Part shown: positions 57,419 to 63,067 of the stretch, in pieces | Numbering within the stretch: position 1 is the first letter of the stretch | How the letters are laid out: every line of letters starts with the position of its first letter | Source: Zootoca vivipara | Lineage: Eukaryota | NCBI RefSeq assembly: GCF_963506605.1 | Contig: NC_083282.1 | Span: forward strand, 38,750,001-38,814,000 | Length of the DNA: 64,000 nucleotides | Reading direction: 5' to 3' | Program-made: the position numbers and the translations under genes | Notes under the pieces: generated by a model | The model's database searches: none | What the model was told of the DNA's origin: nothing | What the model saw: only the letters and a program-made list of their open reading frames with translations

Positions 57419-60400
57419 AATGTTTGAGAAGTGTGGGTGCTGCATGAGTTCTTGCTGTTATTTATTTATTGCTTTTATATCCCAGCTTTTTCTCCAAAGA
57501 GCTCAAGACGGCCTCCGTGGTCTCCCCCTTGTCATTTAATCCGCAGAACAACCCTGTGAGGTAGGTTAGGCATCTTAGCTGTTGATCTGTGTAGGGAAAG
57601 GTGCTTGTTCATACAGCAGCAATTGCATCTACAGTTAGCTTGCTAGGCTTAATTATTATTATTATTATTATTACAAAAAAAAACTCAGGGAGCTGAGCCA
57701 GGCCAAAAGAAAGCCCTTCTCATTAAGAACCACTGCTTTATTTAAACAATTTGTAGCCTTCAAACACCTAATCAGGGCCGGCCCTACGGCAAGGATGGGT
57801 GGTGCAGGGCACTGGGCTGCCAGGGGGCGCTGCGCGGCTGAGCCTGCGGCAGCCGCGCTACACGCTGCGCCCAGACAGCCACGCTGGGAAACCGGGGGGA
57901 GGAAGGGATATTCGCACCAGGGCGCCAGATATGCCCTGGCGCCTTGCACTACCCAGCCTTGCCTTAGAGCTGGCCCTGTGTGTGTGGCTAATAACCATCC
58001 TGTTAGGAAAATGTTGCTACAATATATCAGACCCTGAGTCTTTGCAGCAGATGAAATGCCCATAGAATGGCTTGCACATGTGTCACAACCAGCCCGCGAT
58101 AGTTTTCTGGGGCATTGCTCAGTCACATCTGGTTACAGCAACAGCTGCCAGCCGGGGCAATGAATTCTGCTACCCTTGTTCATCACCATGAAGCTGACAC
58201 ACAGGTACAAGTCATGGCAGGACACTCACCTTTCTAGCACAGTGCTGCATCAGAGCTTCAGGTTCTTTTGAAAATGTAACTTCATCATCACAGAGGAAGG
58301 TTGGAGGAACTCAGCTGTAATCACCTCATTATTCTGCACTCGAAAATAATATGTTTAGAATTCTACCCCTCTAGTTACTCATTTTTTTGGTTGGTCATGT
58401 CATGTTTTATGATATATGTGTAGAATTTTCATAACAAGGGGGGGGAAATCTTTTCAAAAAAGAAGGTTGGAGGAACATGAGCAGGTTGGAGGACTGGAAA
58501 CAGCTATGGTCACTGGTGGAGGTGGGGCTTGTTTTGATATCCTCCCAGATGGGAGGAGCATGCTGTCACAGGGGAGGGGTAAATTTAAACAAGGCTTCTG
58601 TAACTGGGTGCAACCTTGATCATTTTTTAAAAAAAATAAATCTAAGATGCTTTAGACATGTGGCTTTAAGAAAGATCCAGACATAACCAAGGATGAGGCC
58701 AATTCAAATATTTTATTTTGAATGTTCAAACCTATTAGAGAAGTGGTTGCAGTGCTCACAAACACGTCCCTGAACAGCCTGGGCTCAAATCACAAACCCT
58801 CTGCACCAATTTCTAACACTATCCAGTTTTCTGATTAGATGCTTTTACAATATTCTGGACTACTTGGCTCAAGCTGAACAAACAAAGGTGCAACCTTTTG
58901 CTCACCCAGTTTATCATCCCCTCCAGCAACAGACAACAGGGAAAATACAGGTGGCTGAACTGGAGCACAGTTTGTCAAAGCAAAATGTTTGCGCTGAGGG
59001 GCAGGGCTATATTTATGTTTAAACTACAACTGTGCAGAGTCCAAACTTCTTAAGACATTAGAGAAAGCAGCAGTGGGGTGGGGGGGCACACATCAAACTA
59101 ACCATACTAGTAACTACAAAAATGTTTTAGAAAATAATTGCCACCTTGAGTCACATAAAAATGTTGCTATTCTACCTGTTTTGCTCAGAGCTTCTTGTAG
59201 CTAGAACCTGTTTCCTGTTACTCATGGCTGCCCAATTAAATAAATCTTAGCTAATTAGTTTGAGTTGTTTATTGACCAACCAACCAACCAACCAACCAAT
59301 ATTCAATTGAATGTGAGTCAATGTGCATATATCAGCATATATACAGACACACAGAGAGACAAGAAAAAGAATATGTTTTCTGGATTGTGCTCCTTGGAAT
59401 TAGTTGCACTGATATCAGTAGGATTTACTTCTAGAAATGAAAGAATTGGTCAGTTTTGATTTCTCTTAGTTCCCCATTTCCCCAGTCTTAAGTTCATTTC
59501 ATCACATTCCTGCATCAGTTTGTGAATTTCTTGTCACTATTTAATGTGCATCTCGCCTAATAGGGACACAGGTGGTGCTGTGGGTTAAACCACAGAGCCT
59601 AGGGCTTGCTGATCAGAAGGTCAGCGGTTTGAATCCCCGTGACGGGGTGAGTTCCTGTTGCTCGGTCCCAGCTCCTGCCAACCTAGCAGTTCGAAAGCAC
59701 GTCAAAGTGCAAGTAGATAAATAGGAACCGCTACAGCGGGAAGGTAAAGGGCGTTTCTGTGTGCTGCTCTGGTTCGCCAGAAGCGGCTTTGTCATGCTGG
59801 CCACATGACCTGGAAGCTGTACGCCGGCTCCCTCGGCCAATAATGCGAGATGAGCGCCACAACCCCAGAGTCGGTCACGACTGGACCTAATGGTCAGGGG
59901 TCCCTTTACCTTTACCTCCTAATATGCATTACATTATAATATTACATTATTACAAATATTACATTATTGACCATGGCAAGGACAGGAGTAGCTGCCAAAG
60001 TACTTGATTTAATGGAGCTACTGGTGTTCAGCATACTCCTGAAGGCACCTGAGGCCATCACCTTAGAGAAGCTAAGCAGGTGGCTGGTTGGGTGGCCACT
60101 GCTTGGGAACCACATGAATGCCACCTTGGATTCCAAAACCGAAGAAGGGTGGAAAATAAACAGAGGTAAAGGGCATTTCCATGTGCTGCTCTGGTTCGCC
60201 AGAAGCGGCTTTGTCATGCTGTCCACATGACCTGGAAGCTGTACCCTTTACCTTTATAAGAACAAGCTTTCCAAACCAGTTCCTTTGTCAGGCTAATGGC
60301 TTTGCCTGGCTAGTTAAGGACCATGATTTAGCCGCATAATCAAAGAAGTTGCTCTGTGCCATAAAACAAATGGTGAGATTTTTCCCATACAGCCCTCACC

Positions 60401-63067
60401 CAGCTGCAGGGCTGGATTAACCATTAAGCAACATGGGGGGGGGGGCACTACAGGATTTTTCCATTGATGGATTTTTAACATTAATACTGTAGTCACAAAT
60501 TGCTCAGCTGAGCTTCCATTTTCTCAGCTGAGGTATAACAAAAATCCCAACAGAACAACTATGCAACAAGGCAGGTTGGGTGCCTTATTTCTACTAAGTT
60601 TAGAATCGGATGTGTTGCGTAAGGTTAGTTTTGAGGATCTGATCGGAGACTTTGCAATTAAAAAAAGTAGGAGAAAAGGTTGTCAAATATAAAGTGGAAG
60701 TATACAAAAATAAACATTGTTTTCTACCTTGCTATGGGTTTTGTTTCATTTTGAAAAATAAAATGTTATTTTACTTTTTATTATTGTTTATATTTTGAAT
60801 TAGATACTGTATATATGGAGGCCCCAAAATCTTTTAAGTGCTCTTAGGGCCTCTAAATCGGGTCAGCAACCTTTTCCAGCCATGGGCTGGTCCACCGTCC
60901 CTCAGACCATGTGGTGGGCGGAACTATAATTTTTTTGGGGGGGTGAACTAATTCCTATGCCCCACAAATAACCCAGAAAATGCATTTTAAATAAAAGGAC
61001 ACATTCTACTCATGTAAAAACACCAGGCAGGCCCCACAAATAACCCAGAGATGCATTTTAAATAAAAGGACACATTCTACTCATGTAAAAACATGCTGAT
61101 TCCCGGACCGTCTGTGGGCCGGATCGAGAAGGTGATTGGGCCGCATCTGGCCCCGGGGCTTTAGGTTGCCTACCCCTGCTCTAAATTATCTTAATCTGGC
61201 CTGCCCAACTGCTAGCAGAACAATAGCCAGAGTGGGTGGAGATGCAAAGCTGAAGCTAGAAGCTACAGAGAGAGGTGTATTTGCTCGTGTTGGATCCAAA
61301 GCTGTGGCCAGTGGAGAAGCAAGATCTGTTGGAGTGTTAATGCTGTGAGTGTTTCAAGTGGTGCTAATTATGATTAAGGATAATGCGGGTGTATTATAAA
61401 ACAAAGATCCATTCTACTCAAGTCTCAGTTTTACCCTTGTGGAGAGGAGGATGGAGACAAAACTAGAATTAGTTGACTCTGGCTGTACCTATTGTGGCCT
61501 CCCTGTCTTTTCCAAAGGGTGCCAGCCACCACTTGCTAATGAGTAGATATATATAAGGCAGTGCTGTAAGTGACAGAAGGGAAGAGATGCCCTCCTTTGC
61601 TCATTTCCTTCTCATCCAGAGCAAGGTGCCATCTCAATTCATGTCCTCGCACACTTCAGTCTTTCCAAAGGGCATAATGTACAATGGTGGCCAAGCTGAA
61701 TGTTGACACATAAATTTCTCCTTTCATTGCCCATCGTTCAACAGAGTAAGGAGAAGTTCACTAATGGAACAATGTATTGTGTATTTGTTTGTTTTTAAGG
61801 CAATAGCGATAGCTAGAGAACACCCACTTGTTCTGAACCGCCTAGCAAAAATCTTCCACTTCCTTGGCAAGCAAGAGATGGCAATGGCAGTCTGCAACAT
61901 GGCCTTAGATGTGCTGCCAGATCCAGTACTTAACTGGCAGGCATATTGCATGCGCGCCAAGGTATGGAATTCTCCTTTAAAAACAAGGAGTTTGTCTGTC
62001 AGCATTGTGCTTCCTGAAAAGCCATTAATGCAGCTGCCTTTCTGGTCAGCATCAATTATTTTGGTTTAACTGCATAAACAAAAAGTCTCTTCTTGTAACT
62101 TCTCCTAATGAGGGCACTGCTTAAATTCCAGTGCTACCAACTCTGTTAGAACATATGAACCTGCCTTGGTCCATCTAGCTTAGTAATATCTGTGTCTATT
62201 TGATATAAGCTGTTTATTTTAAAGTTATTGTGACTTTTTTTGTATTGGATCTGATTGTTATTAAGTGTGCAATCTTTGTTGTCCATTTTGTTACTTCTTC
62301 AGCTTCTAAACCACCTTGTGTGTAGTAATAGAGAAAGGTGGTATACAAATTGAAAGTGAAATGAAGGGCAGTATCTGGCAGAGGCAGTAATTTACTGATT
62401 TAGACTCTGAAATTAATGGGCTTATGGGAGGGGGCTTTAGATGGCCATACACATTACTTCACTTACTTCCATATGTGGTGAGTCAGCCTTGCTGTGTCTG
62501 AGGCCTCCTCTTCTCATTCTGAGTAATGGGGGGGTCCCACACTTCAGCCCCAAAGTCCTGCCTGTCCTTGATGGTACCTCCAGGTCTTTCCAAGCTCTGA
62601 CCACTGAGACCCTTTTAACAAGAGAAGTTGGGGAATAAAGAACAGTCATACAAACTAATGTGCAAGGAGGGGAGGGCAGAGTCAAATTGGTTTAACAGCT
62701 CTTTGTTTTTAGATGCTGCTTAAACTATATTTGTGTGATTTGGATCGTGTGAAGGTGGGCCTGGGAGGAATGCCAGACCAGAGAAACCTCTCTTATGCCA
62801 AAGCTGATCTCGAGAATGTCATGAAGGTGCATCCATGTCTGAAGACTTACCTTGACCTAGGCCAGGTGAGTGAAAGCAACCACCTTGTCCAGACATAGTC
62901 ATTGTCTTCACTTTATTTTATCTGTATGATAATAAAAGTGTTGTTGCTTATTCAGGCTTTTAACAGGACTAAGGCTGCAATCTTAATTTCAGTAACTTGG
63001 AAGCGAGCCCCATTTGAATCCAATAGGGTTTATTTTTGAGTAAACATTGTTAGGATTGCACTTTTTA
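57419..63067 (+). pseudogene. TTC22: Partial TTC22 duplicate: intron 1 fragment plus exon 5 (61800-61961) and exon 6 (62713-62865); no exon 1, exons 2-4 deleted
   Basis: 57419-60163 aligns to about 9000-11741, and 60164-63067 aligns to about 16371-19197, near-identical by eye. Exon 5 has one synonymous change; exon 6 has R->C (cgt->tgt). Confidence 0.9.
59562..59915 (+). mobile_element. Sauria SINE (duplicate of 11139-11493)
   Basis: Same flanks as the first copy. Confidence 0.85.

Follow-up and report, generated by a model that had tools for sequence, protein, structure and literature searches.

The closest described relatives of the gene treated here, an oxidosqualene cyclase (OSC) paralog of the lizard Zootoca vivipara, are the vertebrate lanosterol synthases (LSS/ERG7; human 1W6K and 1W6J). 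The gene lies in a 64,000-nucleotide stretch of contig NC_083282.1 (assembly GCF_963506605.1, positions 38,750,001 to 38,814,000, forward strand), the whole of which is called the window below. Like LSS it has both SQHop_cyclase domains, a DCTAE motif with D455, a matching exon pattern and about 57–60 % identity, and it shares V453, F444, W387, W581, H232, Y503, F696 and Y704. However, it is a separate gene beside TTC22, the canonical LSS being found on another contig (C1), and relative to LSS it carries Y98C, W192L, a deleted G380, T381V/F, N382M/I, C449N, F521Y, I524C, N697Y and I702L.

Sea-cucumber parkeol and lanostadienol synthases are likewise animal OSC paralogs derived by duplication with a change of product, according to the available part of PMC11641436, which treats the OSCs of other animals as lanosterol synthases. 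There the switch is F444L/Q, whereas F444 is present in both lizard copies and lizards retain a canonical LSS. Resemblance to plant dammarenyl-type synthases (the Cannabaceae cluster P0176 and the Tripterygium OSC 8J5Z), as read from alignments, comprises the missing Y98 and P101, a 380–382 loop shorter by one residue, changes at 521, 524 and 697, and an L702-H703-Y704 motif. In contrast to the lizard H232/Y503, the plant cluster has Y at 232 and W at 503; W192L is not among the shared changes, and identity to the plant protein is about 37 %. Since the paralog is of vertebrate LSS ancestry, any such likeness is convergent. Finally, models automatically named “lanosterol synthase-like” in RefSeq and GenBank (from Lacerta, Podarcis, Zootoca, Rhineura, snakes and iguanians) belong to the same clade; L. 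agilis has three, P. raffonei two and Rhineura apparently three isoform series. The Zootoca models are fragments of 201–512 aa (P0124 matching copy 1, P0122 and P0130 matching copy 2), whereas the genes described here are full 748-aa frames. The two copies on NC_083282.1 (contig C7) are sisters from a separate young duplication.

The locus is best explained by a 48-kb tandem duplication that gave two intact OSC paralogs, which likely make a non-lanosterol triterpene, with the window copy likely shifting its product; we hold this reading as a whole with moderate confidence. A non-homologous join would have formed the tandem unit, bringing along a whole OSC and a headless TTC22 as passenger. Copy 2 would have kept its native upstream context and the ancestral pocket, copy 1 would have retained just 6.4 kb upstream and acquired most derived changes, and pocket substitutions would shift the product of this window copy.

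Positions beyond the window are given as window equivalents, to which 38,750,000 is added to obtain the position on contig C7; with flanks of 200 kb per side, 464 kb were covered. The duplication has the following parts:

9000..57418, + strand: duplication unit copy 1 (48,419 bp), with TTC22 intron 1 to exon 7, the whole of OSC copy 1 and 6.4 kb upstream of the OSC start codon
57419..64000 in the window, ending at window equivalent 107011, + strand: duplication unit copy 2 (49,593 bp)
57418..57419, no strand: head-to-tail junction, blunt, with no repeat common to both breakpoints, each half matching one other place in the genome only
60164..60164, no strand: deletion site in copy 2, where copy-1 bases 11742-16370 (4,629 bp, TTC22 exons 2-4) are absent
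63068..67523 in window equivalents (63068..64000 in the window), no strand: L1-type insertion private to copy 2, with a 16-bp target-site duplication
23894..25807, no strand: tract of low divergence between the copies, covering OSC exons 19-20

Self-BLAST of the window pairs 9000-11741 with 57419-60164 (93.7 %), 16371-17235 with 60164-61022 (94.2 %) and 17173-19198 with 61031-63067 (97.3 %), with no change of orientation. As TTC22 exon 1 ends at 8859, the sequence restarts at 57419 from a point 141 bp into intron 1, just as the original prediction had read it. The head-to-tail repeat of 9000-57418 continues collinearly to 107011, 43 kb beyond the window, and then stops; it was thus found within the next 200 kb, where a check had been proposed. 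The two units (48.4 and 49.6 kb) are adjacent, in the same orientation, longer than 1 kb and more than 90 % identical, as is required of a tandem segmental duplication. They had been called near-identical, and their similarity is indeed high, but the precise figure is 751 substitutions in 34,508 aligned bases (2.2 % as Kimura two-parameter distance), to which many kb-scale private insertions and deletions must be added. The private deletion and the L1 that had been noticed are both real: the former removes 4,629 bp, and the latter (4.5 kb, its 5′ part apparently inverted) has a target-site duplication, the matching site in copy 1 being empty. The unit does contain a whole OSC, with 6.4 kb upstream of the start codon where about 6 kb had been estimated, and the TTC22 exon 7 and second OSC forecast to the right of the window are present at 68646-69176 and, complete with 22 exons, at 102378-70485. 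The suggested array, by contrast, was not found: no more than two copies were found in the 464 kb, and a genome-wide protein search (1.44 Gb; all 56 of the best candidates scored) gave 50 matches, only in the two C7 copies and one C1 gene.

If squamate substitution rates are, as we assume, 1–3.5e-9 per site per year, the duplication is roughly 3–11 million years old. Only 4 substitutions fall in the bins 24000-25999 (2 kb), compared with about 2.2 % elsewhere, and gene conversion after the duplication is likely because the tract at 23.9–25.8 kb hardly differs from one copy to the other.

The junction is blunt and each of its halves has a single other match, which argues for a non-homologous join. 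A repeat-mediated origin by non-allelic homologous recombination was rejected, the join being blunt and the two outer flanks unlike each other. It is highly probable that the duplication arose via non-homologous end joining or template switching and not by recombination between repeats; in mechanism, it is ordinary.

One rival explanation is a false duplication, with two haplotypes put in tandem by the assembler. This was weighed with four runs from three studies (X1, X5, X6 and X9) sampled at 56000-59500, in which the variant letters match the differences between the ends of copies 1 and 2. For 57270-57338, three of the four carry the two copy-specific versions at comparable depth (X1 5.6/12.7, X5 32.1/53.5, X6 57.9/115.4). 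Moreover, a contig starts precisely at 57419 in X1, X5 and X9, while the X6 piece starts at 57516. In a k-mer model the tandem arrangement gives the word at 57419 two predecessors and so forces a contig break there, which the two-allele model does not. Speaking for an artefact, none of the contig pieces listed for the four runs over 56000-59500 spans the junction, several contigs in other runs represent one merged version, X1 may come from the very animal that was assembled, and among the pieces listed X9 has mainly the copy-2 version at 57160-57389. However, the 57418/57419 junction is free of N in the assembly, the units differ by 2.2 %, by many kb-scale private insertions and by the deletion of three TTC22 exons, and the same variant pairs recur in animals of three studies. 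Since contigs of other individuals carry both versions and start at the exact junction, evidence that is indirect yet consistent, an artefact is unlikely; we consider a false duplication very improbable and are highly confident that the duplication is real and common to other individuals. It is likely specific to this lizard lineage.

The duplicated cyclase is encoded on the minus strand:

22172..51030, − strand: LSS-like OSC copy 1, 22 coding exons, 748 aa, open frame, with derived F381, I382, A502 and G694
102378-70485 in window equivalents, − strand: LSS-like OSC copy 2, 22 exons, 748 aa, open frame, with ancestral V381, M382, S502 and T694
32990..33043, − strand: OSC exon 12 (54 nt), with a one-residue deletion at human G380 and copy differences at 381, 382 and 392

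All splice sites are intact in both copies, neither has a stop or a frameshift, and both keep the DCTAE motif; the N and C SQHop_cyclase domains score over the Pfam cut-off in the ortholog P0126, which is 94 % identical, and at 60 % identity the fold is evident. The two proteins agree at 737/748 residues (98.5 %), and their 23 codon differences divide into 12 synonymous and 11 non-synonymous (dN 0.008 and dS 0.023, the non-synonymous and synonymous divergences, against a genomic divergence of 0.022). There are no coding indels between the copies, whereas 6.8 non-triplet indels would be expected from the flanks (P = 0.001, or 0.10 if the true rate is a third), a flank rate that is inflated by simple repeats. 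Three RNA runs of a single study (tissue unstated, sampled at about 6 in 100) have almost no depth over OSC exons 7-22, which is uninformative for expression elsewhere, and no RNA record was among those listed over the junction. Two details of the coding exons may be added. The exon 7 donor (window 37731) belongs to a GC-AG intron that is kept in both copies. In exon 15 (30984-31133 versus window equivalent 80395-80544), codons 453-454 differ by three bases, both changes being synonymous; codon 454, which adjoins the catalytic D455, uses two different Ser codon families, and the copy-2 form creates a short inverted repeat, all of which suggests a template-switch mutation.

Where the copies differ, the substrate pocket is involved more often than expected. 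Pocket positions were pooled from residues named in PMC2817430, PMC8911567, bioRxiv 10.64898/2026.05.26.727834 and PMC12858397, giving 33 sites (34 in the plant and sterol-type comparison, after one plant-to-human mapping correction; the cross-species totals stay on 33). Differences were scored over residues 1-729, which leaves out S743R and gives 10, of which three are pocket sites on the 33-site list (P = 0.009). Copies with different pocket residues had been foreseen; this is correct, with the refinement that the derived changes (V381F, M382I, S502A, T694G) belong to the window copy and that downstream copy 2 has the ancestral pocket of the paralog. All three pocket differences are derived in copy 1, as judged against 17 of 17 other LSS-like proteins at 381 and 382 and 16 of 17 at 502. 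T694G is a two-base change back to the residue of LSS, the plant cluster and 14/14 sterol-type enzymes, that is, of all other OSC groups aligned. Position 694 adjoins 695, the equivalent of S724 in OSC9; S724V alters the OSC product and, in the available part of PMC12858397, has the strongest effect among the first 12 OSC9 mutants. The part of bioRxiv 10.64898/2026.05.26.727834 available likewise has T531S, in combination, altering OSC products. The pattern extends to other young pairs: within species, 8/34 differences fall in the pocket (3/10 here, 2/19 in L. agilis, 3/5 in Rhineura) compared with 13/339 in seven between-species pairs (P = 2e-4), and four LSS pairs have 4/472.

The same changes could be early damage. 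According to the main rival, the duplication is real but copy 1 is redundant, under relaxed selection and heading to loss. Copy 1 has the derived state at about 8 of the 11 differing amino acids, and at several of these sites the other LSS-like proteins do not vary; its upstream DNA amounts to only 6.4 kb; and birth and loss are usual at the locus, the other lacertid paralog clade not having been found in the genome. Nevertheless, copy 1 has no stop, frameshift or splice loss, it has acquired about 9 non-synonymous base changes where about 19 would be expected if it were neutral, T694G restores a family-wide residue through two base changes, and the changes cluster on pocket sites. Decay is an unlikely explanation, although not a negligible one. 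For a window copy whose product profile differs from that of copy 2, judged from the predicted proteins, the chances are close to even, if anything slightly below.

The analysis places the C7 pair as an uncharacterised lizard-and-snake OSC paralog, separate from the canonical LSS. The genome has three OSC genes, the C7 pair and the canonical LSS on C1 (about 57 % identical). In a FastTree protein tree, built from proteins of at least 600 aa with 7 of 44 rows left out, the window gene is not the LSS ortholog of the genome but groups with LSS-like proteins of lacertids, Rhineura, snakes and iguanians in one clade. Within it the two copies pair as sisters with support 1.0, separate from a young L. 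agilis pair and from an older lacertid split, so that the locus duplicates repeatedly. No remnant of the other lacertid paralog clade was detected nearby (464 kb) or among the best candidates of the genome protein search. Going by locus tags, LSS-like lies near TTC22 in Naja (010302 / 010304) and in Phrynosoma (017926 / 017921). Among the best 120 hits, those aligned from gecko, Anolis, Varanus and Elgaria represent canonical LSS, which is not proof that the paralog is absent there. Horizontal transfer from plants was rejected, since the gene corresponds to the C1 LSS exon by exon and is about 60 % identical to LSS of vertebrates. A literature search, with subscription journals outside its coverage, returned no paper on the squamate LSS-like paralog.

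What this paralog makes has to be judged from its pocket. D455, C456, C533, W387, F444, W581, V453, H232, Y503, F696 and Y704 are kept, while the sterol-type residues Y98, W192, G380, I524 and N697 are lost. At sites conserved in LSS, the paralog is changed at 15/31 in the pocket versus 102/491 elsewhere (P = 0.001). Comparison was made with 14 sterol-type representatives, picked from the hits by motif, and with a plant lupeol/beta-amyrin-synthase cluster of three related proteins. Seven residues (Y98, P101, G380, N382, I524, N697 and I702) are kept in 14/14 of the former and lost in both the paralog and the plant cluster. Over all sterol-conserved sites, 26/61 of those lost in the plant cluster are also lost in the paralog, compared with 26/161 of those kept in that cluster (P = 7e-5), although sites of the former kind may simply be more tolerant of change. 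The G380 gap and the LHY motif are common to the paralog and the plant structure 8J5Z. Of the residues that mark a canonical lanosterol synthase, V453 and F444 are found in both copies; T381 and C/Q449 are replaced, by V or F at 381 and by N at 449.

Several considerations weigh against a change of product. The pocket list was compiled after the copy differences were known, and plant positions were converted to human ones by offsets. On the plant side the comparison uses a single 3-protein cluster plus 8J5Z, and the residue is identical in only 5/26 shared losses. Both 381 and 449 are noted as variable, 381 varying in lanosterol makers (available part of PMC2817430), and N at 449 favours lanosterol in AtCAS according to the part of bioRxiv 10.64898/2026.05.26.727834 at hand. 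V453, F444, H232 and Y503, tied to lanosterol formation in the accessible portions of PMC2817430, PMC11641436 and bioRxiv 10.64898/2026.05.26.727834, are all kept; for F444, a role in the OSC product is described in the available text of PMC11641436. At 0.34 overall, the dN/dS ratio gives no indication of positive selection across the gene as a whole, and changes at invariant sites are also what relaxed selection on copy 1 would predict. Pocket enrichment drops to 2/9 (P = 0.06) if 381 and 382 represent one mutational event, and three older lacertid paralog pairs have 7/161 differences in the pocket, without enrichment. The 5 Rhineura differences are all at residues 512-705, and those gene models may share exons.

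Retention of D455, V453, F444, H232, Y503 and F696 also suits a third account, in which the duplication was kept for dosage or split expression and both copies make one same product, perhaps plain lanosterol in a specialised tissue. The 98.5 % identity of the proteins, the likely conversion tract over exons 19-20 and the 2–3 copies in other lacertids speak in its favour. However, young-copy differences concentrate in the pocket and the paralog is without many residues that are invariant in sterol-type enzymes, which makes this account improbable. The reading preferred here is that of a changed product: since several copy differences are in or beside the predicted substrate pocket, a product other than the usual cholesterol precursor is likely, and the main product of the paralog is probably not lanosterol alone.

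Given that Y98 and G380 are lost and H232/Y503 retained as a pair, our single best guess for that product would be a tetracyclic alcohol of the euphol/tirucallol kind; a parkeol- or cucurbitadienol-type product has about equal odds. Y98 presumably helps to force the boat-shaped B ring. In AtCAS, Y118L at the equivalent site opens a new product on its own (available part of bioRxiv 10.64898/2026.05.26.727834).

Pocket changes are also seen in related proteins. Iguanian LSS-like proteins (P0032 and P0397 of Pogona, P0156 of Phrynosoma, P0019 of Sceloporus) have further ones, among them H232F, F444S, V453A and Y503F in Phrynosoma and C456G in Pogona, which, as predicted sequences, suggest other products or decay. 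The turtle LSS-derived models P0017 (Pelusios) and P0110 (Mauremys) have their own (H232Q, Y98F, I524A, and F444L as in parkeol synthases), and their grouping with turtle LSS suggests independent duplications. One young L. agilis copy, P0131, has DTTAE in place of DCTAE, a motif named for sea-cucumber OSCs in the part of PMC11641436 available.

The cyclase shares its unit with TTC22, whose copies and next neighbour are as follows:

8299..20842, + strand: intact TTC22, 565 aa, 7 exons (8299-8859, 12610-12665, 15584-15699, 16001-16119, 17930-18091, 18844-18996, 20312-20842)
61800..62865, + strand: in-window part of the TTC22 remnant in copy 2, with exon 5 at 61800-61961 and exon 6 at about 62713-62865, exons 1-4 absent
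68646-69176 in window equivalents (outside the window), + strand: exon 7 of the TTC22 remnant in copy 2
112726-114222 in window equivalents: single-copy, single-ORF (open reading frame) prolyl-tRNA ligase gene, the next gene beyond copy 2

The copy 1 unit covers the 3′ part of the intact TTC22. In copy 2, exon 1 is lacking by construction, exons 2-4 went with the 4,629-bp deletion and only exons 5-7 are left (7 BLAST mismatches between the copies, flanks included), a dead remnant that bears out the headless, broken passenger of the original prediction. Among 3′ TTC22 reads of the three RNA runs, the copy-2 letter occurs in 0/47 read-site observations at six sites, but in 2/2 at 21117 and 5/5 at 21232; the remnant is probably mostly silent, although the letters at these two positions leave the matter unsettled. 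One X21 RNA read at window 22338-22339 has copy-2 letters and runs in the direction of the TTC22 reads, antisense to the cyclase; stray DNA, or transcription running on out of the headless TTC22 copy, could explain it. Copy 2 retains its native upstream context beside the prolyl-tRNA ligase gene (presumably PARS2), whereas copy 1 has its 6.4 kb and then TTC22 intron.

Further out, a second, younger tandem repeat (window equivalent 159396-178059, L010-L012) has a unit of about 6.2 kb in roughly three copies that are 97–99.4 % identical; the exon upstream of it resembles what we take to be TTC4. On the minus strand at 119782-122889 (L006), a stop-free frame of 1,036 codons belongs to an element, RTE-like as we assume, whose match to a shorter piece at 13846-14564 is about 97 %. 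Some 23 kb to the left of the window, a reading frame at window equivalent −24000 to −23000 approximately (L038) resembles what we take to be exon 1 of DHCR24. The cyclase paralog thus stands near what is presumably another sterol-pathway gene, probably through old TTC22-DHCR24 synteny.

The tandem duplication is ordinary; the duplicated gene is unusual, being a squamate cyclase with a pocket that departs from that of lanosterol synthase. If it is true that the paralog makes another triterpene scaffold, it would be a vertebrate route to specialised triterpenes, for which skin or scent-gland chemistry may be guessed as a role. The natural enzyme pair, which differs at 11 residues with four in the pocket or next to it, offers a small and direct test of OSC product specificity, which the available part of PMC12858397 terms not well understood. 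A bolder picture, which as a whole we regard as possible but rather doubtful, is that squamates would possess, as a second cyclase, a non-sterol triterpene enzyme whose pocket design became convergent with that of plant triterpene synthases, that lacertoids would repeatedly duplicate it and retune its pocket, and that the C7 pair would represent such a product switch within a few million years, with only four pocket-area residues between the copies. If true, such retuning of the pocket would parallel the defence and signalling chemistry of plants.

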